Below, in pieces: positions 5,344-34,046 of a DNA stretch of 37,284 bases. The translations under genes and the position numbers were made by a program. Origin of the DNA: Rubrivivax sp. Its GTDB lineage: Bacteria; Pseudomonadota; Gammaproteobacteria; Burkholderiales; Burkholderiaceae_C. The notes under the pieces are model-generated. The model had not been told where the DNA came from, searched no databases, and saw nothing but the letters and a program-made list of their open reading frames with translations. The stretch lies in contig JANNMQ010000076.1 of NCBI GenBank assembly GCA_031398045.1, positions 1 to 37,284 on the forward strand, given 5' to 3'. Numbering within the stretch: the first letter of the stretch is position 1; the number at the start of each line of letters is the position of its first letter.

Positions 5344-6693
5344 TTAGCGCCTGCGTGCGGCGAGCCAGCCTTCCAGGTAATGGATGGTGGTGCCACCTTC
5401 CATGAACTTGGCGTCGGACATCAATTCGCGGTGCAGCGGGATGTTGGTGTGGATGCCTTCCACCACGGTCTCGCTCAGCGCGGTGCGCATGCGCGCCAGC
5501 GCCTGCGCCCGGGTGTCGCCATGCACGATGATCTTGCCGATCATGGAGTCGTAATTGGGCGGCACGTAGTAATTGGTGTAAACGTGCGAGTCGACCCGCA
5601 CCCCGGGCCCACCCGGTGCATGCCACAGCGTGATGCGCCCTGGCGACGGTGTGAATTTGTAGGGGTCTTCGGCATTGATACGGCATTCCAGCGCATGGCC
5701 GCGCACCTCGATGTTGCGCTGCGCAAAAGGCAGCTTTTCGCCGGCGGCAATGCGTATCTGCATCTGCACGATGTCCACGCCCGTCACCCATTCCGTCACC
5801 GGGTGCTCCACCTGCACCCGCGTGTTCATCTCGATGAAAAAAAACTCGCCGTTTTCAAACAGGAATTCAAACGTGCCGGCGCCGCGGTAGCCCATTTTTT
5901 TGCCGGCCGCTGCGCAGCGGTCGCCGATCTTTTCGATCACGCGGCGGGCGATGCCCGGGGCGGGTGCTTCTTCGATGATCTTCTGGTGCCGGCGCTGCAT
6001 GGAGCAGTCGCGTTCACCCAGCCACACCGCATTCCTGAACGTGTCGGCCAGCACCTGGATCTCGATGTGGCGCGGGTGCTCCAGGAACTTTTCCATGTAC
6101 ACCGCCGGGTTGCCAAAAGCGGCGCCGGCCTCTGACCGCGTGGTTTGCACCGCGTGTATCAGCGCAGCTTCGGTGTGCACCACGCGCATGCCGCGCCCAC
6201 CGCCGCCACCCGCGGCTTTGATGATGACGGGGTAGCCTATGGCCCGGGCCTGGCGGATGATTTCTTTGGGATCTTCGGGCAGCGCGCCCTCGCTGCCGGG
6301 CACGCACGGCACACCGCTCTTGATCATGGCCTGCTTGGCCTGCACCTTGTCACCCATGGTGCGGATGTTTTCTGGCGTGGGCCCGATGAAAACAAAACCG
6401 CTGCGTTCCACGCGCTCGGCGAAGTCGGCGTTTTCGCTCAGGAAACCGTAGCCGGGGTGGATGGCTTCGGCGTCGGTGACTTCGGCCGTGGCGATGATGG
6501 CCGGCATGTTCAGATAGCTCAGCGCCGACGGCGCCGGGCCGATGCACACGGCTTCGTCAGCCAGCTTCACATACTTGGCTTCACGGTCGGCTTCTGAATA
6601 GACGACCACCGACTTAATGCCCATTTCGCGGCAAGCGCGCTGTATCCGCAGAGCGATCTCGCCCCGGTTCGCTATGAGTATTTTCTTAAACAT
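5344..6693 (-). CDS. accC: Acetyl-CoA carboxylase, biotin carboxylase subunit
   Basis: [40 protein letters not shown] and [10 protein letters not shown] motifs; 449 aa. Confidence 0.97.
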
Positions 6694-6705
6694 GGTGGTC
6701 GGGGC

Positions 6706-6807
6706 TCAATCGCTCTCGTGCGCTGCGCGCACGCAGAACAATGTGGCTTCGCCGCTGCGCCCGCGGCGCAGAACGCCCCGGTTGGCAATCAGAATTTTCT
6801 TGAACAC
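6706..6807 (-). other. 33-aa mini-ORF duplicating the AccC N-terminus ([33 protein letters not shown]) with a hairpin-rich tail
   Basis: GTG at 6807 to TGA at 6706. Positions 6775-6807 match accC 6661-6693 at 27 of 33 nt; the differences are the start codon and five synonymous third positions. Whether it is translated is unknown. Confidence 0.75.
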
Positions 6808-6822
6808 GCGCAGCCGCCCCCG

Positions 6823-7308
6823 TTATTCAACGATGTACAGCGGCTGGCCGAATTCAACCGCCTGACCGTTTTCGCACAGCATGCGCACCACTTTGCCCTC
6901 GCAGTCGGATTCGATCTCGTTCATGATCTTCATGGCTTCGATGATGCACACCGGCTGCCCCGGTTTGACGCTGTCGCCAATGTCAATGAAAGGTTTGGCG
7001 CCCGGGCTGGCTGCACGGTAGAACGTGCCCACCATCGGCGACTTGATGACCTTGTCAGTGGCGCGGGCGGCGGCTTCGGTAGCGGCTGCCACGGCGGCGG
7101 CTTCGGTTTCCACCGCGGCCGCAGCTGCAGCGGTGGCCGCCGCGCTGAGGGGCGCGGGCGCCATCATCATCATCGGCGCTGCCATCGCGCCAGTGCCCAT
7201 GCCCCCTTTGACGATGCGCACCTTGCCTTCGGCTTCGGTGATTTCAAGTTCCGAGATGTTGGAGTCCGACACCAGGTCGATCAGGGTTTTCAGTTTTCGC
7301 AAGTCCAT
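6823..7308 (-). CDS. accB: Biotin carboxyl carrier protein of acetyl-CoA carboxylase
   Basis: MDLRKLKTLIDLV start with a GAGGAG SD, Ala-rich linker, SPMVGTFY, and biotinylation site EAMKIMNEI. Confidence 0.97.
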   Translation of the reverse strand: MDLRKLKTLIDLVSDSNISELEITEAEGKVRIVKGGMGTGAMAAPMMMMAPAPLSAAATAAAAAAVETEAAAVAAATEAAARATDKVIKSPMVGTFYRAASPGAKPFIDIGDSVKPGQPVCIIEAMKIMNEIESDCEGKVVRMLCENGQAVEFGQPLYIVE

Positions 7309-10109: not shown

Positions 10110-10138
10110 GAAGGGTGCGTGCGTCGTCGCCTGAAAAA

Positions 10139-11020
10139 TCAGCGCTCGGCGGACAGTTCTGCGCGCAGAGCGGCCAGTACCGGCGCGGTGGCCGGACGCA
10201 CACCGCGCCACAACACAAAGGCTTCTGCGGCCTGCTCCACCAGCATGCCCAGGCCGTCACGCGCCTGCGCGCCATGCGCCTGCGCCCAGGCCAGCCAGGG
10301 CGCCGCTGCAGGGCCGTACATCAGGTCGATGGCCAAGCAGCCCGCACCGAGCACGTCTGCTGCCACGGGCGACGCCGCTGCCTGCAGGCTGCTGGCGCTG
10401 GCGTTGATGACCAGTGTGCTGGGGCCCTGCGCAGCGGCTTCTGTCAACCCGCAGGCACTGAGACGCACCCCGTGCACCGCGGCCCAGCTGGCATGCCGCG
10501 CCACCAGAGCCTGCGCCCTGGCTGCATGGCGGTTGGCCACACGCACGGTGGCAGGCCTTTGCTGCAGCACAGGCCCCAACACGCCGGCCGCTGCACCGCC
10601 GGCGCCTATCAGCAGCACGGTCTGGCCGGCCAGCGCCACGCCGGCACCTTGTTCGATGTCGTGCACCAAGCCCACGCCGTCGGTGTTGTCGGCCAGCCAG
10701 TTGTCACCGTCGATGTGCAACACGTTGGCCGCGCCGGCCAGCGTGGCGCGTGCGGTGCAGCGGGTGGCCAGCGCAGGAGTTTCAAACTTGAACGGCAGGG
10801 TGACGTTGCAGCCACGTCCACCGGCGGCCGCAAAACGCCGCACGGCAGGTGCAAAGTCGTCCATCGCGCAAAGCAGCCGCTCGTAGACCAGGTTTTGGCC
10901 AGTTTGCTGCGCAAACAGGTGGTGGATGAAAGGCGAACGGCTGTGCGCCACTGGATTGCCCAACACAGCGTAGCGGTCGGGGGCGCCGGCGCCGGCGGCT
11001 GCGGAAGAAACATCTGGCAT
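10139..11020 (-). CDS. aroE: Shikimate dehydrogenase
   Basis: GNPVAHSRSPFIH, GCNVTLPFK, DNTDGVG, GAGGAA and DGLGMLVEQA motifs. Start could be 11020 or 11044. Confidence 0.95.
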   Translation of the reverse strand: MPDVSSAAAGAGAPDRYAVLGNPVAHSRSPFIHHLFAQQTGQNLVYERLLCAMDDFAPAVRRFAAAGGRGCNVTLPFKFETPALATRCTARATLAGAANVLHIDGDNWLADNTDGVGLVHDIEQGAGVALAGQTVLLIGAGGAAAGVLGPVLQQRPATVRVANRHAARAQALVARHASWAAVHGVRLSACGLTEAAAQGPSTLVINASASSLQAAASPVAADVLGAGCLAIDLMYGPAAAPWLAWAQAHGAQARDGLGMLVEQAAEAFVLWRGVRPATAPVLAALRAELSAER

Positions 11021-24349: not shown

Positions 24350-26878
24350 ATGAGCTTTCTGGACCGAATCAAAGGCCCCAAGCCCACCCACGGACCGTCA
24401 GCTGCCCATGCCGCGGCGGCGGACTCTGCGGCTGAAGCTGTGGCTGGCGGCGCTGCGGTGGCCACGCCCGTGTCGCCGCTGGCTGAAACCCGCGCCCGGG
24501 CAAGCGCTGCGGCGGCCATGGCACCGACTGCATTTGATGAGTTGACGCCAGCCTCGGCAATGGAAGCCACCATCAGGTTGGATCCCGGTTTGAATGCCGG
24601 TGTGTACGCCAGCTCCAACCCGCAAGCCACCCTGCAGGCCTTGACGGCGGTGGGGTCGGCAACAGCCGCTTCGGGCGCTGCATCGTCGAGATCTGCAAAT
24701 TCGGCTGCCCCATCACCATCAGCACCCGGGTCCATCTTTTCTGAAGCAGCACCGTCTGAACTGGCCACCGAGTTCAACGAATCCACCCAAAGCCCCAAAT
24801 CCGCGGCGCTGCGGGAAGGCGCCAGCGGTTTGCCGCTGGTGGGTGGCTGGCCGGTGGCACGCCAGCAGCGTGCCATGTTGTTGCTGCTGGGCCTGGGACT
24901 TTTGGGCCTGTTGAGTGCTGCAGGTTGGGCACTCAATCTGGCCTCGCAGGGCGCCGCACAGGTGGCCGCTGCCGGCCAGGCAGCCACACAGTCTCAGCGC
25001 CTGGCCAAATCGTCCACGCAGGCCGCCATGGGGCGCCCGCTGGCCTTTCCCGAGCTGCGTGACAGTGTGACCGTGCTGACGCGCAACCTGCGCGGCTTGC
25101 AGTCCGGTGAAAGTGGTGTGCCCGCCGTGTCTGAAACGCTGCAGCCGGCACTGGCGGCCCTGATGCCGCTGGTCGACCGCGCTGAAAAAAGCGCCGCGGT
25201 GGTGGCCGCGCAAGAAAAAACGCTGACGCAGGCCGGCAAGGCCCTGCGCGATATCAACCGCCAGAGCACCGAATTGCTGGAAACCGCTGAAGCGGTGTCG
25301 GCTTTGAAACTGCAGGCCGGTGCCACTTCGGCCGAACTGGCTGCCGTCAACCAGCTGGCGTTGCTGACCCAGCGTGTGGGCAAAAGTGCCAACGAGTTTG
25401 TTTCAGCCGAAGGTGCCAGCGCCGAGGCGGTGTTCCTGCTGGAAAAGGACCTCGGCAGTTTTCAGCAAACCGCGCTGGCGCTGCTGGATGGCAAGGCTGA
25501 GCTGGGTCTGCCCGGCACCAAGGAAGGACCAGCGCGCGAAAAGTTGCAGCAGCTGCTGACCCAGTTTGAAGCCACGCGCGGCGAAGCGCGCTCCATGTTG
25601 GACAACCTGAAAGGCCTGGTGGCGGCGCGCGAAGCGCAGGCGCTGATCGTGGCCGATTCAGAACCGTTGCGCCGCGGCCTTGAATCCCTGCAGCAGGGCT
25701 TGGCCGGCAGCGGCGGCATGGCGGGTTGGCCTTTGGTGCTGTTGGTGTCTTCATTGCTGCTGTCGGCTGCCGCCGCTTTTGGATTGCTGCGACTTTTTGT
25801 GTTTGACCAGACCAACCGTTCACGCCAGGCCGATGCCCAGCGGCAGGAAGCCGAGCGGCAGGAGCGTGAAGCCAAGCGTGTGAATGACGCCAACCAGGCC
25901 GCCATCCTGCGGCTGATGAACGAGCTGCAAACAGTGGCCGAGGGCGATTTGACGCAACAAGCCACCGTCACCGAAGACATCACCGGCGCCATTGCCGATT
26001 CGGTCAACTACACGGTGGAAGAGCTGCGCTCGCTGGTGTCGCAGGTGCAGAGCACCGTGGGCCGCGTCACCGACACCACGGCCCAGGTGGACGAAACCTC
26101 CACCGAACTGCTGGCGGCGTCGGGTGAACAGCTGCGCGAAATACGTGAAACCGGCGACTCGGTGCTGAAGATGGCGGGCCGCATCAACGATGTGAGCGCG
26201 CAAGCGCAAGAAACCGCCAGCGTGGCACGGCAGTCACTGCGTGCGTCAGAAACCGGCTTGCAGGCGGTGCAGGATGCCATCGGTGGCATGAACACCATCC
26301 GCGACCAGATCCAGGACACCTCCAAGCGCATCAAGCGTCTGGGCGAAAGTTCCCAAGAAATCGGCGAAATCACCGAGCTCATTTCCGACATCACTGAACA
26401 AACCAACGTGCTGGCACTGAATGCAGCCATCCAGGCGGCCAGTGCCGGTGAGGCTGGGCGCGGCTTCAGCGTGGTGGCCGAAGAAGTGCAGCGGCTGGCC
26501 GAGCGCTCGGCCGATGCCACGCGCCAGATTGCGGCCATCGTGCGCACCATCCAGACCGACACACAGGACGCCGTGGGCGCCATGGAGCGCAGCACGCAAG
26601 GGGTGGTGGAAGGTGCGCGCCTGTCCGATGCGACCGGCGCCGCCCTGGCCGACATCGACCGCGTCACGCGCGAACTGGCCGACCTCATCAGCCGCATTTC
26701 CGAAGAAGCCCTGCGCGAAGCGCGTTCGGCCAACCTGGTGGCGGCCAACATCCAGCATATTTTTGCAGTGACCGAACAGACTTCCGAGGGCACAAGGTCA
26801 ACGGCCCAGATGGTGCGCGACCTTTCAAAAATGGCGCAGGAACTGAACACCTCGGTGGCTCGTTTCAAGATCTCCTGA
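24350..26878 (+). CDS. pilJ: Methyl-accepting chemotaxis protein PilJ
   Basis: Two TM helices, SQRLAK PilJ-type periplasmic motif, HAMP-like EGDLT, signalling domain [37 protein letters not shown]. Confidence 0.93.
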
Positions 26879-26906
26879 ACCCGATCCGCACCAGGACCCT
26901 TCACGC

Positions 26907-29900
26907 ATGGATTCAGCCGACCTGAACAGCGCTGCCAGTCGCAGCTACGGCCAGACCACCGCGGCCGTTCGGGGCCCGCGGCTGGGCCTGCTGGCGCCTG
27001 ACGACTTGAGCGCGGTGGCCTGGGTGCAGGCTGAATTGAAACGTTCGCTGGAATCTGCCAATAAAACGCTGCGGCGCTACCTGCGCGACGCCGACACGGC
27101 GCGCCTGAGTGACCTGGACTCGGTGGAGCCCGCCGTGTTGCGCGGTGCACGTGCGCAACTGCACCAGGGTGTGGGCGCGCTGGAACTGGTGGACCTGCCC
27201 GCTGCGGCGCAGGTGCTGCGTGCGGCCGAAAGCCTGGTGCAACGCATGGCTACCAAACCCGCTGCCGCCACGCCAGCGGCGGTGGAGGCGGTGGAGCGGG
27301 TGTCGTTTGCGCTGCTCGACTACCTGGCCCGTTACCTGGCCGGCAAGCCGGTGTCGCCGGTGGCGCTGTTTCCGCAGTACCAAGCGGCCATGCTGCTGGC
27401 GGGCGCTGAACGGGTGCACCCCGCTGACCTGTGGTCCTTCGACAGCAACGCCTGGGCCGAAGGGTTGCGCCACGGTGGCGGATTTTTGCCTGACGCGGCC
27501 GACCAACCCCGGCGTGCTGACGATGCGTCGCGCAGCGACATGGAACAGCTGGTGTTGGGTCTGATGCGTGAACCCGGTCGCCAGACCTGCCTGCGCATGA
27601 GCAGACTGTGCGCCGAATTGGCCGCCGGTGCGCGGCAGCAGCCGGGTGAACACCCGCTGGCTGGCATGTGGCAAAGCGCTGCCGCGGTCTACGAAGCCCT
27701 GGCCAACGGCCTGTTGGCCAACGACGTGCACACCAAGCGGGTGGCGTCACGCCTGCTGGCACAACTGCGCGCCAGTGCACGCGGGCAGGTGGGTCTGTCT
27801 GAGCGTCTGGCGCAAGACCTCATCTTCTTTTGTGCCCACGCCAGCCCACCGCGTGCTGACCGCCCGTCACCTCGGTTGGCGGCGGTGCGCCGGGCCTGGC
27901 GGCTGGACGGTCTGCGCACCGACGCCTACGACCGCGTGCGGCTGGGTCTGCACGACCCCGCCTTGTTGGCTTCGGCCAAACGCCGTGTGGCCGCTGCCAA
28001 AGACACCTGGGCCGCGGTGGCTGGCGACGAACAGCACCGCCTGTCCAACCTGATGGAGCAGTTTGCGTTGGTGGGTGAGTCGCTGCAGAAGCTGTTCCCT
28101 TCAGGTGAAGCACTGGCCCACGCGCTCAGCCTTTCCGCGGCGCAAACCGCGGCCAGCCTGTCACCGCCGCCGCCGCCGCTGGCCATGGAAGTGGCGACGG
28201 CTTTTCTGTACGTTGACGCGGCGCTGGAAGACGGTGAGCTTGACCAGCCCGACCTGGCCGAACGGGTGTTGCAATTGGCGCAGCGGGTGGACCAGGTGCG
28301 TGCCGGGGCGGCTCAACAGCCGCTGGAAAGCTGGATGGAGGAGCTGTACCGCCGCGTCAGCGACCGCCAGACCATGGGCAGTGTGGTGCAGGAACTGCGC
28401 AGCTCGCTGTCCAATGCTGAAAAGCACATCGACCAGTACTTCAGAAATCCTGCTGACCCGACACCCCTCGTGGCGGTGCCGGGCCAGCTGGCTTCGATGC
28501 GGGGCGTGTTGTCGGTGCTGGGCCTGGACCACGCATCGCAAGCGGTGCTGCACATGCGCGACGACGTGGAGCAACTGCTGCAGACGGAAGTCGACGCCGA
28601 GCAAGCCCAGAAAGCGGGCACCTTCAACCGGCTGGCCGACAACCTGGGCGCGTTGAGTTTTTTGATCGACATGCTGTCTGTGCAGCCCCAGCTGGCCAAG
28701 GCCTTGTTCACGTTTGACGCCGACACCGGCAGCCTGAGCGCAGCCATGGGCCTGCGTGAACGGGCCTCGGCATTGGGTGAGTTGGACGCTGCGGCTGTTG
28801 TGGCCCCTGTGGCCCCTGTGGCTGCATCTTCTTTGGCCTCCGCTGTGCTGCCCTCTGTAGCCGCGGCCGCTGCGGCGGCGGCTTCTGCTGGGCCGTCACC
28901 TGCACCGCCCCCACCGGCCACGGTGGTGCCCGCAGCGCCGCGCGGCGGCGCGCTGCCTTTGCAGCCTGCCACCGCGTCCAGCAGGCTGGTTGCAGATGGC
29001 GTGCAGGTCACTGCGCAGGTTGGCAGCGACGGCAACACCGGTATCCACAGCGCCAACCTCACTACCGCCCGTGCAGGCCCCAGCGCTGCCCCGCTTGCAC
29101 CTTTGCCGTTCCCCGTCGCTGCGCCCAGCGCCGCGGCATTGCCGGCGGGCGACATCAAGTTGCAGGTGCGTCTGCAGGCGCTGGCGGCCGAGGCCGCGCA
29201 GCCCAACCTGGGTGACCATGAGCTCCTGGTCAGCATCGACTTGGTGGCCCAGCAGGCGCTGGCGGCTGACCGTGCCGACCTGGCCCGCTTGCTGGGCAGC
29301 GCACAACGCGGCCTGCGGGACAGCATAGACCCCACCACCAGCCGCGTCATCAGGACCGACCTGGTGCGTGCCCTGGCCGAAGCCACCACGCCGGCGCCCG
29401 TGCCTTTGCCAGCCGAACGCCCCGTGCCGGCCCCGCGCCCCACACCCGAGGGCGGCACGGGCCTGGAAGATGACGCCGAGATGCGCGCCATCTTCATGGA
29501 AGAGGCCCGCGACGTCACCGAACAGGCCCTGCAGGCCCTGCAGCGCGCCCAGCAAGCCGGGGGCGAAGCCGCTGGCGACATGACCACCATCCGCCGTGCC
29601 TTCCACACGCTGAAAGGCAGCGCGCGCATGGTCGGCTTGCGCGAATTCGGCGATGCGGCCTGGGCCTGTGAGCAGCTTTACAACGTGCGGCTGGCGCAAA
29701 CCACCGTACCCGACGAGCCGCTGGTGCAGTTCACCACCGATGCACTGGCTTACCTGCGCAACTGGACCGACGCCATCGAAACCGGTCTACCCAGCGGCCA
29801 CCATGCTCAGGCCGTGGTGCAGGTCGCCGATGCCTTGTGGCACCAGGGCCGCTTGCAGCGCATTGCGCCTGCAGCGTTGGCGCCTCAGGCGCATGCTGCG

Positions 29901-32900
29901 GTGCCGTCTGCACCCGCATCTGCACCCGCATCTGTACCCGTATCTGCACCTGTACTTGCACCTGTACCTGCACCCGTACTTGCACCCGTAGGCGCATCCG
30001 TAGCGGCGCCGGCAACGCTCGTCGACCGTGTCAGCAATCTGCCCAGCGCCGCCGACCTGGATCTGACGCTGCCCGCAGTCGCTTCGCCTGTGGAAGCCCA
30101 AACAACCCGTGCCCAGCCGGCTGCACCGGCGCCTCCCGTGCCTTCAATGCCCGAGGTGGAACTTGACTTCGACCTCGGCCTTGATGCTCCGAATGCAGGC
30201 GTGGCCACGCCTGATGGATTGCCGGCAAACCAGGGCGCGCCGACCATTCCGGTGTTTGCAGTCGGCACAGCACCCGCTGCGGAGCGCACAGATCGACCAC
30301 CGCTGTCTGAACCTGTGCAGCTGGTTGATTTTGAGTTTGACCTTGCTGGTGCTTATGCCGAACCACTGCCGCCGCCCCAGCCCAGGTTGCCGCTGATAAC
30401 GGAACTGCCCGCTGCCGACGTGTTGGAACTCGACTTCGCCGACTTTCCAGAGTTCTTGGCGGTTGCTGCCCAGCCTGCTGGGCCCGCAGGGGCTGAGGCC
30501 TTCGAAACGCAGGCCCCCGCGTTGCCTGTGGCTGAAGCACCGGCGCCACCTGCTCAACCCGAACAGCGCGCACCCGTGTCTGATGAGCTTCCCCCGCTGC
30601 CCGGCTTTGAATCGGCGGTAAAGGCACCTCAAGAAGCACCGCCGGCTGCTGCGCCGGTGCAACACCCCGTTGCCTCCGCGCCCGCGCGCCTGTCGCTGGT
30701 GCCGCCCACGCCGGCTCCCCCGTCCCTGGCAGCTGTTGACGAAGACGAAAACTACAAACGCATCGGTCCGCTGCGCATCAGCATCCCGCTCTTCAACATC
30801 TTCCTGAACGAGGCCGATGAGCTGTCTCGCCGCCTCGTCAATGAACTGGCTGAATGGGCGTTGGAAAGTGACAGCCGCCCGGTGCCCGAGGTTTCCATTG
30901 CGCTGGCCCATGGGCTGGCTGGCAGTGCGGGCACGGTGGGTTGCGCCGACCTGTCCGCGTTGGCGCGTGCGCTTGAACATGCACTGATGCGGTCCAGCGC
31001 CGTTGGCTCGGGTCGACCCGGCGAAGGCGATTTGTTCAGCGACACGGCCGAGGAAATCCGGCGCCTGTTGCACCAGTTTGCCGCCGGCTTCCTGCGCGAC
31101 GTGCCCGTGGCTTTGCGCGAGCGACTGTCTGAACATGAACGCCTGCCTGCGCAGGCGCGCGCCACCGAATCTGGTGCGCTGGGCGCAGAACACGAAGACC
31201 GGGCAGCGGCCGCCCGGCCTGAAAGAGCGGCGCCCTCGATGCCTGCAGCGCAGGGGGCGATAACGCCGGCGGTGGTGGAGCCCGCCGTGCCTCATGCCGA
31301 CCTGCGCGCAGCGACCGCTACCCCAGCTGCGCCGTCCTTGCCGCTGGTGCCCACGGGCGCACGCAAAGACGCCTTTGACGACGACCAGGACATCGATGTC
31401 GTTGACAGCGTCGACATTGAGCTTTTCCCCATCTTTGACGAAGAGGCCGAAGAACTGCTGCCACAGCTGCAGGCACGCCTGCGCGACTGGATGCACCAGC
31501 CTTCCCAAGAAGGCCCGCCAGCGGCCTGCATGCGCACGTTGCACACGTTCAAGGGCGGCGCCCGCCTGGCCGGTGCCATGCGCCTGGGTGAAATGGCGCA
31601 CCGGCTGGAGACGGCCATTGAGCACCTGGCCTCCAGCGAAAGCGCACGTGCGGCTGACGTACTGCCTTTGCTGGGTCGCGCTGACGCCATGGTCTCGGCA
31701 CTTGAAGCCCTGCGCCGGCAGGGCCAGGTGCAGGCCCAAGAGGCCAAGACCGCAGCAGCGCTGGCACAGGCGGCGGCTGTCAGTGCCGCGGCGGCAGCCA
31801 GCAGTTATGGCTTGCAAACACCGCCAGCGGGCGCGGCGGCGCCAGTACCGCCTGAAGCAGTCCGCGCGATGGAGCCCGCTGCTGCGCAGGTGGCTGATGC
31901 GGCCCCTGCGCTGGCCGAACCCGACACGGCCGCCGAAGAGGCTGCAGCCGCCAACGCACAAGCAGCGGTGGCAGGCCCGGCAGCCCTTGCAGAGCCAATC
32001 ACAAGCTCCTTCAGCACCGTGGCCGGGGTGGCTGCGGTCGCTGGGCAGGCTGTTGCGGTCGACGCCGGAGCAGCCTACGCCAACGCAGCCAGCCCCGCTG
32101 CAACCACCGCGCCGACAGCGCAGCGCCTGGACTGGAGCCGCTTTGAACGCGGCGGTGCTGCAGCACCCGCCGGAGAAGAGCGCGTGGCCACGGGCCCGGC
32201 CGGCGTGCGTGTGCGCGCAGCCTTGCTGGACCGCTTGCTGAACCAAGCCGGCGAAGTAACCATTGCACGTTCGCGCATCGATGCTGACGTCAAACAGCTG
32301 CAGTCCGGTTTGGGCGAACTGGGCGAAAGCCTGGACCGCATGCGTCACCAGCTGCGCGACATTGAGGTGCAGGCAGAAACGCAGATCAGCTCGCGCCTGG
32401 AAGCGGCCAAAGCGGCGGCTCAGGCCTTCGATCCGCTGGAGATGGACCGCTTCACGCGGCTGCAAGAACTGACGCGTTTCATGGCTGAATCGGTGAACGA
32501 CGTGGCCACGCTGCAGCGCGGGCTGCAGCGCACACTGCAGTCAGCTGAAGACCAGCTGGCCGCGCAGTCGCGCCTGACCCGCGACCTGCAAGACGACCTG
32601 CTGCGCACACGCATGGTGGAATTTGAAAGCGCATCCGACCGTCTGTACCGCACCGTGCGCCAGGCCGCCAAAGAAGCGGGCAAGCAGGTACGGCTGGACA
32701 TCGTGGGCGGCGCCATCGAACTGGACCGCGGTGTGCTGGAACGTATGATCGGCCCCTTCGAACACCTGCTGCGCAACTGCGTGGCGCATGGGGTTGAATC
32801 CGAGACCGAACGCGTGGCCGCCGGCAAGCCCGGGGTGGGGCAGGTCACCATCGCCGTCGCCCAGTCGGGCAACGAAGTGGCGGTGGACATTGCCGACGAC

Positions 32901-34046
32901 GGTGCCGGCCTGGACCTGCAGCGCATCCGGCAGCGTGCCATCGAAAGGCGACTGCTGCCCGAGGGCGCAGCACCCAGCGAAGCCGAACTGTCGCAGCTGA
33001 TTTTCAAACCCGGCTTCACCACCGCCGACGCGGTGACCGAACTGGCCGGTCGCGGAGTGGGATTGGACGTGGTGCGCGCCGAGGTCACCGCGATGGGCGG
33101 GCGCATCGAAACCCAAACTGCAGCCGGCCAGGGCACGCGCTTCAAGCTGCTGCTGCCGCTGACCACCGCCGTCACGCAGGTGGTGATGCTGCGTTGTGGC
33201 GACCTGGTGGTGGCCGTGCCCAGTACCCTGATTGAAAGCATACGCCGCGTGCCAGGTGCAGAGGTGGAGGCTGCCTATGCCAGTGGCAAGCTGGATATGG
33301 ACGGCGAGGCGCTGCCGTTTTATTGGCTGGCTGCGCTGCTGCAGGCCGCGGCGCGGGGCGGCACTGCTGAAGGGCGCACGCAGGCCGTGGCAGTGGTGCG
33401 CAGCGCAGCGCAGCGGGTGGCGGTGCATATCGACGAGGTGGTGGGCAACCAGGAAGTGGTGGTCAAGAACGTGGGCCCGCAACTCGCCCGGGTGCCTGGG
33501 CTTGCCGGCGTCACTTTGTTGCCCTCGGGAGCCGTGGCCCTGATCTACAACCCGGTGGCCTTGTCGGCCGTGTACGGTGAACATCTTCGAAGCGTGCAGT
33601 CTTTCGGCGGCGCGCAGGCCGCCGAAGGGCTTTCTGCAGCCGCGGCACCTCGTTTGCAACCCCTGGTGATGGTGGTGGACGACTCCTTGACCGTGCGCCG
33701 TGCGACCGAGCGGCTGCTGGTGCGTGAGGGTTACCGGGTGGTGACTGCCAAAGACGGCATGGAAGCCCTGGAACTGCTGGCCGGCGAAAGACCGGTGGCC
33801 CTGTTGTCCGACATCGAAATGCCGCGCATGGACGGCTTTGACCTGCTGCGTAACGTGCGTGCTGACGCGCGGCTGGCCGATTTGCCGGTGGTGATGATCA
33901 CCTCGCGCATTGCCCATAAACACCGCGAACATGCGTCTGAACTGGGCGCCGACCATTATTTGGGCAAACCGTACGGCGAAGACGAGTTGTTGCGCTTCGT
34001 GGCACGCTACGCTGGCGGTGCAGTGCGTGCGGGCGTGGCGGTCTAG
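26907..34046 (+). CDS. chpA: ChpA/PilL hybrid CheA-type histidine kinase (multiple Hpt, HATPase, CheW, receiver)
   Basis: Hpt motifs FHTLKGS, AHGLAGS and LHTFKGG; HLLRNCVAHG, DDGAG and GRGVGLDVV; a CheW domain; C-terminal receiver VVDDS...LSDIEMP. 2379 aa. Confidence 0.93.
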   Translation: MDSADLNSAASRSYGQTTAAVRGPRLGLLAPDDLSAVAWVQAELKRSLESANKTLRRYLRDADTARLSDLDSVEPAVLRGARAQLHQGVGALELVDLPAAAQVLRAAESLVQRMATKPAAATPAAVEAVERVSFALLDYLARYLAGKPVSPVALFPQYQAAMLLAGAERVHPADLWSFDSNAWAEGLRHGGGFLPDAADQPRRADDASRSDMEQLVLGLMREPGRQTCLRMSRLCAELAAGARQQPGEHPLAGMWQSAAAVYEALANGLLANDVHTKRVASRLLAQLRASARGQVGLSERLAQDLIFFCAHASPPRADRPSPRLAAVRRAWRLDGLRTDAYDRVRLGLHDPALLASAKRRVAAAKDTWAAVAGDEQHRLSNLMEQFALVGESLQKLFPSGEALAHALSLSAAQTAASLSPPPPPLAMEVATAFLYVDAALEDGELDQPDLAERVLQLAQRVDQVRAGAAQQPLESWMEELYRRVSDRQTMGSVVQELRSSLSNAEKHIDQYFRNPADPTPLVAVPGQLASMRGVLSVLGLDHASQAVLHMRDDVEQLLQTEVDAEQAQKAGTFNRLADNLGALSFLIDMLSVQPQLAKALFTFDADTGSLSAAMGLRERASALGELDAAAVVAPVAPVAASSLASAVLPSVAAAAAAAASAGPSPAPPPPATVVPAAPRGGALPLQPATASSRLVADGVQVTAQVGSDGNTGIHSANLTTARAGPSAAPLAPLPFPVAAPSAAALPAGDIKLQVRLQALAAEAAQPNLGDHELLVSIDLVAQQALAADRADLARLLGSAQRGLRDSIDPTTSRVIRTDLVRALAEATTPAPVPLPAERPVPAPRPTPEGGTGLEDDAEMRAIFMEEARDVTEQALQALQRAQQAGGEAAGDMTTIRRAFHTLKGSARMVGLREFGDAAWACEQLYNVRLAQTTVPDEPLVQFTTDALAYLRNWTDAIETGLPSGHHAQAVVQVADALWHQGRLQRIAPAALAPQAHAAVPSAPASAPASVPVSAPVLAPVPAPVLAPVGASVAAPATLVDRVSNLPSAADLDLTLPAVASPVEAQTTRAQPAAPAPPVPSMPEVELDFDLGLDAPNAGVATPDGLPANQGAPTIPVFAVGTAPAAERTDRPPLSEPVQLVDFEFDLAGAYAEPLPPPQPRLPLITELPAADVLELDFADFPEFLAVAAQPAGPAGAEAFETQAPALPVAEAPAPPAQPEQRAPVSDELPPLPGFESAVKAPQEAPPAAAPVQHPVASAPARLSLVPPTPAPPSLAAVDEDENYKRIGPLRISIPLFNIFLNEADELSRRLVNELAEWALESDSRPVPEVSIALAHGLAGSAGTVGCADLSALARALEHALMRSSAVGSGRPGEGDLFSDTAEEIRRLLHQFAAGFLRDVPVALRERLSEHERLPAQARATESGALGAEHEDRAAAARPERAAPSMPAAQGAITPAVVEPAVPHADLRAATATPAAPSLPLVPTGARKDAFDDDQDIDVVDSVDIELFPIFDEEAEELLPQLQARLRDWMHQPSQEGPPAACMRTLHTFKGGARLAGAMRLGEMAHRLETAIEHLASSESARAADVLPLLGRADAMVSALEALRRQGQVQAQEAKTAAALAQAAAVSAAAAASSYGLQTPPAGAAAPVPPEAVRAMEPAAAQVADAAPALAEPDTAAEEAAAANAQAAVAGPAALAEPITSSFSTVAGVAAVAGQAVAVDAGAAYANAASPAATTAPTAQRLDWSRFERGGAAAPAGEERVATGPAGVRVRAALLDRLLNQAGEVTIARSRIDADVKQLQSGLGELGESLDRMRHQLRDIEVQAETQISSRLEAAKAAAQAFDPLEMDRFTRLQELTRFMAESVNDVATLQRGLQRTLQSAEDQLAAQSRLTRDLQDDLLRTRMVEFESASDRLYRTVRQAAKEAGKQVRLDIVGGAIELDRGVLERMIGPFEHLLRNCVAHGVESETERVAAGKPGVGQVTIAVAQSGNEVAVDIADDGAGLDLQRIRQRAIERRLLPEGAAPSEAELSQLIFKPGFTTADAVTELAGRGVGLDVVRAEVTAMGGRIETQTAAGQGTRFKLLLPLTTAVTQVVMLRCGDLVVAVPSTLIESIRRVPGAEVEAAYASGKLDMDGEALPFYWLAALLQAAARGGTAEGRTQAVAVVRSAAQRVAVHIDEVVGNQEVVVKNVGPQLARVPGLAGVTLLPSGAVALIYNPVALSAVYGEHLRSVQSFGGAQAAEGLSAAAAPRLQPLVMVVDDSLTVRRATERLLVREGYRVVTAKDGMEALELLAGERPVALLSDIEMPRMDGFDLLRNVRADARLADLPVVMITSRIAHKHREHASELGADHYLGKPYGEDELLRFVARYAGGAVRAGVAV
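29907..29990 (+). repeat. In-frame 12-bp tandem repeat, 7 copies, inside chpA (SAPA SAPA SVPV SAPV LAPV PAPV LAPV)
   Basis: Consensus YYTGCACCYGYA, starting at 29907 with a 12-nt period. Confidence 0.92.

Follow-up and report, generated by a model that had tools for sequence, protein, structure and literature searches.

Several described classes of mobile or repeated DNA each resemble, in one respect, the feature treated here: a duplicated gene start ahead of the biotin carboxylase gene accC in a contig of Rubrivivax sp. (GenBank assembly GCA_031398045.1, contig JANNMQ010000076.1). The whole analysed stretch of 37,284 nucleotides is referred to as the window. The duplication very probably marks an inserted unit that carries a replacement start for the gene and a coupling reading frame.

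The dusA-specific integrative elements (IMEVchUSA3), and SXT at prfC, insert in the 5′ coding region of their target, where a new, divergent N-terminus restores the frame (PMC8409611). The unit likewise brings a replacement N-terminus, but those elements are multi-gene and have their own integrase, excisionase and promoter (PMC8409611), whereas the unit is 108-149 nt long, has no integrase between the repeats and carries an antisense arm. IS200/IS605 elements such as IS608, and the REP/TnpA-REP system, share with it small hairpins on one strand and element DNA that pairs with the junction (PMC5934647; 10.1101/279083). Natural IS608 guides are 4 nt long and lie 5′ of the hairpin foot (PMC5934647; 10.1101/279083), and extended pairing allows the element to be engineered to 12/17-nt targets (PMC5934647). 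In contrast, the complement in the unit spans 16-19 nt and follows hairpin 3 on its 3′ side; a Y1 gene is absent from the unit and was not found in the genome, and the gene end is duplicated. The many near-identical extragenic copies typical of REP/REPIN were not found, the units here being few and gene-specific, and a survey of GTAG/CGTC REP sequences gives no match (PMC3733652).

The MIRUs of mycobacteria are short, GC-rich palindromic units of operons, known from filled and empty sites, in which a small open reading frame (ORF) overlaps the adjacent genes (PMC3184786). Such an overlap is found here as well, but MIRUs are intergenic, occur in 40-50 similar copies and have 4-bp direct repeats (PMC3184786), whereas the units cut the gene at codon 11/12, are bounded by 33-35-nt coding repeats and carry a gene-specific start and arm. 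Insertion with long target duplication, described for restriction-modification genes and including Betaproteobacteria, produces long repeats, in many cases across a start or stop codon, without disrupting the gene (PMC2853133). The repeat found here also spans a start or stop codon, but those insertions have gene cargo and variable repeats (PMC2853133). The present unit has no cargo and a fixed junction, and its two flanking copies represent different alleles separated by a conserved fold. In integrons a folded single strand is the recombination substrate, and insertion at attG (GWT) is dispersed and avoids essential genes, with no replacement start (10.1101/2022.09.11.507474). A folded single strand is also what we propose for the unit, and 38 of 42 genus genomes encode an integron integrase, but the units have neither attC-type ends nor a cassette ORF. 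We regard the feature as genuine; it is widespread in certain lineages and belongs to none of the families compared, lacking a defining trait of each.

The displaced and the replacement start of accC

On the minus strand the accB stop codon TAA (6825-6823) is followed after 15 nt by a GTG (6807), from which a frame of 33 codons runs to a TGA (6708-6706); the ATG of accC (6693) lies 12 nt farther on. The two start copies differ at 6 of 33 nt over 11 codons, namely at the start codon and the third positions of codons 2, 5, 6, 7 and 8, all silently, and share one more G before they diverge. Our re-reading confirms the position, spacing and six silent differences given by the original prediction, together with the rare ATA codons (two) and the lack of a clear Shine-Dalgarno sequence (no GGAG) at the new start. 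The gene order is aroQ-accB-accC-prmA (Pfam), and the features are collected in Table 1.

The source genome (G000) is a fragmented assembly with 6.7% contamination, features that would favour an assembly artefact. This explanation, like that of a chance duplication, has practically no probability left and is refuted by the following data. A 452-nt contig of sequencing run X1, which is a separate assembly of what is possibly the source sample, spans 6488-6939 with 1 difference, and positions 6604-6773 are also present in a 170-nt contig of run X2. The suspicion of misassembly is further answered by more than 150 homologous units, some of them in isolate genomes. Nor is a duplicate start a chance event: when 35,502 candidate starts were scanned across the genome, 48 matched, and the clean short-range duplicates among them were accC, two further biotin carboxylases and one alpha-E gene.

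Stubs precede three of the five biotin carboxylase genes of this genome, 114, 118 and 121 nt upstream, and have homologous middles; the other two stub-bearing genes encode PCC_BT and weak BT_MCC domains (Pfam). A profile search recovered three strong copies here, and about nine units were found in all, each gene-specific. Across the genus the stub pattern matched 60 times in 43 of 151 genomes (control 0), with the second copy 109-149 nt downstream wherever it was read; two matches remained unresolved, one at a contig end (L044) and one whose second copy the pattern missed (L063). Among the 120 matches listed from a scan of species genomes, 115 are standard units, 1 is at a contig end, 1 has an assembly gap, 1 is a decayed tandem and 2 are false. 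The records that bear units are titled Rubrivivax, Ideonella, Caldimonas, Variovorax, Rhodoferax, Thiobacillus, Gallionella, Pseudothauera and others, and several are isolates. Units are 108-149 nt long, have no protein gene of their own and sometimes form tandem arrays of near-identical copies, up to three in number, as at the Caldimonas locus L101; one is present at 5 of 49 genes fetched regardless of stubs.

The original prediction had allowed that the stub might be peculiar to one assembly; it recurs in these 43 genomes of the genus and in other Betaproteobacteria, and duplicated-start units account for the short "biotin carboxylase" stubs that the prediction mentioned from Burkholderiales annotations. 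Viral contigs gave 0 matches for two patterns, and 20 plasmid records matched at gene-start codons only, with no unit; a generic two-hairpin pattern was too noisy for use. The literature searched, from which most subscription papers and supplements fell outside scope, contains no description of a duplicated-start unit.

Comparison with unit-free ("empty") genes reveals which copy is original. In the closest filled and empty pair on the accC tree (L022 and L005) the stub and the empty allele agree at 31 of 33 nt, GTG included. The new start departs from that allele at 6 of its first 30 nt and again in codon 12, with 0-3 differences per 30 nt further in. GTG starts 10 of 17 empty accC genes and 10 of 16 stubs, but none of 16 new starts. 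In the window the stub is nearer to the empty alleles than the new start is (28.6 vs 26.2 of 33). A longer native N-terminus is preserved in nine of the 151 left copies, eight of which face a standard new start. By sequence comparison, then, the left copy is shown to be native and the right copy foreign. One of the two options of the original prediction, that incoming DNA split accC at its eleventh codon and supplied a replacement 5′ end, is upheld by the L022/L005 pair, with the cut at codon 11/12; so is the common breakpoint at ANRG that it anticipated. The junction is fixed at codon 11/12 in all resolved biotin carboxylase loci. The codons of the window copy are low in third-position GC (GC3) from 12 to 44 (0.67 vs 0.81), and the gene-wide GC3 average reveals no foreign tract past codon 11. 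At the accC start of L012 (G003:C13) no unit is present, yet the codons and spacer are typical of unit-bearing alleles, possibly as the scar of a lost unit.

The same option went further, taking the locus for the empty site of a cassette system in which other strains would hold genes between the two starts, and this part fails. No cargo was found in the 60 genus matches (2 unresolved) or in at least 120 loci anchored at the left end, and none was found between the starts in a long-repeat scan of G000 and the fetched loci or in a half-unit scan. A metagenome scan anchored at the right end, and so blind to the interior, also found no cargo in 44 loci, 39 having the left copy 110-122 nt upstream, 4 being contig edges and 1 a false match. 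The insert itself is therefore the element rather than an emptied site. Accessory genes do occur in these operons, and one PIN/MazE-type pair stands directly before a truncated half unit (L329), but with no cargo in the genus or in the left- or right-anchored loci the cassette site is already largely refuted and highly improbable. The genes directly upstream of units, judged from peptide ends, are mostly the usual operon neighbours.

Left-truncated half units were observed directly after the upstream gene and ahead of a full unit at L055, L057, L060, L036 and L120; at L055 the upstream stop codon overlaps hairpin 3. At L329 (505-1193, minus strand, G005:C25) a MazE-type antitoxin and a PIN gene lie between pccB and such a half unit, after which come a decayed stub and then a full unit.

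Hairpins, antisense arm and the stub frame

The anatomy of the element was drawn from 151 distinct units. In order these comprise hairpin 1, hairpin 2 (GGC-GNA-GCC), a short sense mimic of the post-junction codons, hairpin 3, the antisense arm, a spacer and the new start. The hairpins and the arm, like the recoded overlapping stop described below, had gone unmentioned in the original prediction. C-GNA-G triloop hairpins were counted 172 times on the sense strand but only 4 times on the antisense strand (shuffle maximum 6) and occur in 131 of the 151 units; common tetraloops are GCCA, GTCA and GGCA, mostly not of the GNRA type. Loops of the GNA type stabilise DNA hairpins, and the loop types therefore point to single-stranded DNA. 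In 20 aligned units, scored on a structure drawn from one member, 92.5% of cells pair and 16 of 28 pairs display compensatory change (0/500 shuffles; slid controls 28-40%). For the antisense arm in the same units the figure is 6 of 12 pairs (0/500 shuffles), only 12 being counted because a gap is misplaced inside the arm in alignment A1. A GTAG/GTGG tag at the hairpin foot, judged by eye only, is not in the consensus of that alignment.

The arm is 16-19 nt long and antisense to codons 9-15. It pairs best with its own gene, scoring 16.5/19, against 14.9 ± 0.08 with other genes of the same type (maximum 15.2, 200 shuffles) and 10.2 when shuffled. Observed against expected Watson-Crick pairing at synonymous sites is 0.92/0.40 at -1, 0.91/0.51 at +2 and 0.83/0.51 at -4 (n=144), and the arm covaries with synonymous sites on both sides of the junction. 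Where the two start copies differ, it matches the new copy 90 times, the old copy 7 times and neither 9 times. G-T pairs outnumber A-C pairs (87 vs 30), and the commonest mismatch, G-A (186), is clustered at the junction in accC units. The arm may either select targets or act as a cis clamp inherited with the codons it pairs.

The frame of the stub is kept open. Early stops occur in 0 of 151 units, against 30 and 18 in the other two frames and about 50 in shuffles. The stub-frame stop falls within -27 to +16 of the new start in 150 of 151 units, a number that drops to 61 when TTC is substituted for TTT. The new start itself provides the stop in 92 units, where the unit is 3n+1 long and codon 2 is changed to TTT, so that the stub frame reads CAT GTT TAA/TAG/TGA. 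Among pcc/mcc-type genes, 30 of 38 filled but only 1 of 21 empty ones have TTT as codon 2. The window unit is 3n long, with its stop 12 nt upstream of the new ATG, and its predicted RNA fold pairs -12 to -7 with codons 10-11, on which account accC would depend on ribosomes that arrive through the stub. The frame statistics support a coupling role, and the unit appears to rely on translational coupling rather than on a new promoter. Tiny selfish DNA can evidently live in essential operons in this way, bringing a new start and making its overlapping stop from synonymous codons of the host (TTT AAG, TCT AGA).

The second option of the original prediction, a selected leader peptide or coupling device that tunes the AccB:AccC ratio, holds in part. 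Its coupling role stands statistically, the frame being open and ending at the new start. A selected peptide is not supported: stubs decay non-synonymously, their tails follow the hairpins, and the core (codons 5-11) is broken in 11 of 165 stubs under profile-based calling, whereas no functional start is so affected save one conservative variant. The statement that only silent changes occur is true of the window copy and is otherwise partly a product of how stubs are found, as those 11 stubs attest. The count of 397 synonymous to 49 non-synonymous changes was inflated by the search pattern and was not taken as a sign of peptide selection. Nor is the coupling specific to AccB and AccC, because the same design is found at pccA-, mccA-, atuF-like and alpha-E genes.

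A host-selected mRNA switch, the form that this second option takes as a rival reading, would use the arm to mask the new initiation region, leaving translation possible only via the leader. It would account for the open frame and the placement of its stop, the predicted RNA fold, the excess of G-U-type over A-C pairs and the lack of a clear Shine-Dalgarno sequence in the window copy. We judge it improbable, as presence looks random among close relatives, units occur in 1-3 tandem copies, stubs decay, the loops are of the DNA type and not GNRA, related units occupy 3′ ends, where a leader role does not exist, and the targets have no common regulon; coupling, moreover, would be needed equally by a harmless parasite. 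Still less credit is due to an RNA-mediated element. Here the transcript would fold and undergo processing or circularisation, after which a reverse transcriptase would write it into the gene at a target aligned by the arm. In its favour, the strand that carries the function is in every case the transcribed one, and tandem units run head to tail. Against it, the loop types favour DNA, and Rfam covariance models run on 3 loci returned two weak matches, neither of which overlaps a unit.

Proposed movement between genes and candidate enzymes

For the spread of the inserted unit we lean towards a non-autonomous element that folds as single-stranded DNA, its arm clamping the junction, and that a trans-acting strand-transfer enzyme joins to the start of an empty gene; the process would be completed by host recombination, and coupling would keep the element harmless. 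The enzyme, the intermediate and the role of the guide are what we infer. The sense strand would be exposed at a replication fork, by transcription or during DNA uptake, and would fold so that the arm clamps the junction segment. A structure-recognising enzyme acting in trans, either of the HUH type or a tyrosine recombinase such as a resident integron integrase, might then cut beside the clamped G|A of the Glu codon. The unit would be joined to an empty gene with matching start codons, and host recombination would complete the exchange, carrying donor codons to about codon 15. Ribosomes would begin at the old start, cross the hairpins and unwind the helix over the new initiation region; their reinitiation at the new ATG is proposed to keep the essential gene expressed. 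Recombination between the 33-35-nt repeats could later delete the unit or amplify it in tandem.

Movement is suggested by the distribution of the units. On a tree of 40 accC genes (codons 51-210; L104 is labelled empty though unit-bearing) presence needs 11 changes, at least 6 of them forced by strong branches, against a shuffled mean of 12.8, that is, no fewer than at random. Seven groups of identical 29-32-nt hairpin-1/2 modules are common to accC-, pccA-, mccA- and atuF-like genes, which are ancient paralogs, of different records. Among 142 modules the nearest relative is in another paralog for 38, tied for 24 and in the same paralog for 80.

A bolder version of this mechanism, which we advance tentatively and consider doubtful, is a natural, reprogrammable DNA-guided insertion system composed of a hairpin scaffold of ~115 nt, a swappable DNA guide of 16-19 nt and a matching replacement gene end. 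A putative trans-acting enzyme would insert it scarlessly into the ends of essential genes, recoding the host termini along the way. Were the arm a true guide, this would be a natural case of long-guide single-strand insertion, which for IS608 has been reached by engineering only (PMC5934647). The units make gene termini mosaic, and analyses of codon usage and of N-termini would be biased by them.

Several observations weigh against a mobilised, guided element. As DNA, the 151-nt region of the window folds no better than shuffles (z -0.08), so that the fold rests on covariation across copies and not on the energy of the window copy. The arm need not be a targeting guide, since arm and paired codons may simply travel together. 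The module identities above are partly set by the search pattern (about 12 of 30 nt), and the genomes are related, hence counts are not independent. Only 1 of 120 genomes sampled evenly across the order matched; the family is therefore common in some lineages and rare overall. The long-repeat scan of G000 and the fetched loci disclosed no enzyme and no ORF-bearing version of the unit, and no circle or excision joint was seen among the contigs listed, contigs alone being covered. A Y1 transposase was not found in this 89%-complete genome. Y1 does not track the unit (11/21 genomes with it, 8/21 without), and the integron integrase, present in 20/22 genomes with and 18/20 without, is near-universal and does not discriminate; the sets "without" a unit are noisy in that they were defined solely by the lack of a biotin carboxylase stub match, and G108 has an alpha-E unit. 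Units are without attC ends, and a crude scan with an attC consensus gave 14 matches, the 12 contigs listed including no unit-bearing one.

The codons around the insert belong to the same account. CGA at codon 10 is found in 10 of the 16 left copies and 11 of the 16 right copies, against 0 of 17 empty accC genes. AT-ending codons in accC are more frequent with the unit than without it at codons 12-15 (0.33 vs 0.17) and not at 16-25 (0.04 vs 0.07; 18 vs 18 genes), and pcc/mcc genes lack the excess at codons 12-15 (0.12 vs 0.12). Donor sequence thus seems to reach both sides, or the repeats were homogenised later; ordinary homologous co-transfer or such homogenisation fits these codons as well as a precise cut does.

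An enzyme-free spread is a rival explanation. A template switch would have created the unit, with its inverted copy and direct repeat, ordinary homologous recombination or transformation would have carried it, the conserved start codons and the gene body serving as homology arms, the arm of the unit would have been matched by co-transfer or quasi-palindrome correction, and selection would only have removed polar versions. That no mobiliser was found, that donor-like codons flank the insert on both sides, that 27 of 151 copy pairs are identical across codons 2-11 and that near-identical units stand in tandem arrays are all in agreement with it. It does not explain the one fixed junction of all resolved loci, the same hairpin architecture at the unrelated alpha-E gene and smpB, the strand-specific GNA loops or the passage of units from one paralog to another when these have only about 45 nt in common, and we rate it as rather unlikely beside the single-stranded element joined by an enzyme in trans.

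Among the candidate enzymes, 9 tyrosine-recombinase matches in G000 have no link to units. Upstream of the integron integrase of this genome lies what we take to be a LexA-like box. Of 20 Y1 loci checked for repeats, 4 bear unrelated GGGGTC repeats. At L202, L203, L205 and L208 weak Y1_Tnp genes are flanked by inverted or palindromic repeats of GGGGTCAGGTCT, which form a separate repeat family.

Units at other genes

The alpha-E gene (PF04168) has units of the same layout, 9 in all, in 9 of 151 genus genomes. By eye, their arm tracks GAA/GAG in 9 of 9; six units of 145 nt recode the start to TCT AG, giving an overlapping stop, and three of 146 nt have the stop just before the start and no recoding. 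Units at the 3′ end of smpB were seen in 5 of 26 relatives read, in addition to this genome, with an arm complementary to the junction by eye; nearly the same smpB end on two contigs here (C385 and C514) reflects strain mixture or contamination. Three of the four further 3′-end units, at ftsW, metK, rplS and the pyruvate kinase gene, have GGCGNAGCC directly ahead of the second copy. The metK unit has a visible 9-nt arm, and no clear arm was seen in the ftsW, rplS and pyruvate kinase units. As judged by eye, most junctions lie at the G|A of a Glu codon.

Table 1. Features of the accB-accC locus and of related loci. Positions are those of the window unless a contig of the source genome (G000) is named.
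Feature	Position	Strand	Basis or remark
accB, biotin carboxyl carrier protein, upstream gene	6823..7308	-	PF00364
accC, biotin carboxylase, intact, 449 aa	5344..6693	-	PF00289, PF02786, PF02785
33-codon stub ORF, original GTG to TGA, 12 nt before new ATG; putative coupling ORF	6706..6807	-	Sequence, frame statistics
Left copy of codons 1-11, displaced original accC start	6775..6807	-	Resembles empty alleles
Inserted unit, 114 nt, one repeat length	6660..6773	-	Exact crossover points inside repeats unreadable from sequence
Hairpin 1, 7-bp stem, loop GCG here, mostly GNA or GNNA in relatives	6755..6771	-	6/7 pairs with compensatory change
Hairpin 2, GGC-GAA-GCC, most conserved motif; also in alpha-E and several 3′-end units	6745..6753	-	Alignment
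Imperfect sense mimic of codons 13-15; alternative fold with antisense arm possible	6735..6742	-	By eye on alignment A1
Hairpin 3, C-GCA-G triloop	6717..6734	-	Covariation
Antisense arm, complements 6666-6650, 3x3 internal loop in this copy; covers 7-23 nt before new ATG	6700..6716	-	Pairing analysis
Right copy of codons 1-11, replacement start brought by unit (ATG TTT AAG...)	6661..6693	-	Allele comparison
accC codons 10-15, segment paired by antisense arm; spans duplication end	6650..6666	-	Pairing analysis
alpha-E unit, 145 nt	G000:C268:9100-9300 (L075, L252)	+	Gene start, PF04168; 8 more in genus
smpB 3′ end duplicated, working copy recoded into hairpins	G000:C385 (L377) and start of C514	- (C385)	
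Hairpin units duplicating 3′ ends of ftsW, metK, rplS and pyruvate kinase genes	C382:1725, C769:1321, C830 about 2830-2900, C1146:105-220 (L374-L376, L378)	+, -, -, +	Pfam
Integron integrase	G000:C643:2606-3571	-	No attC array found on contig

Downstream of the alpha-E operon a tandem 85-nt palindromic repeat occupies the contig end (G000:C268, about 10130-10395). On the plus strand of the window, 24350-34046, are two long ORFs (842 and 2379 aa), which we presume to encode a chemosensory receptor and a CheA-like kinase.

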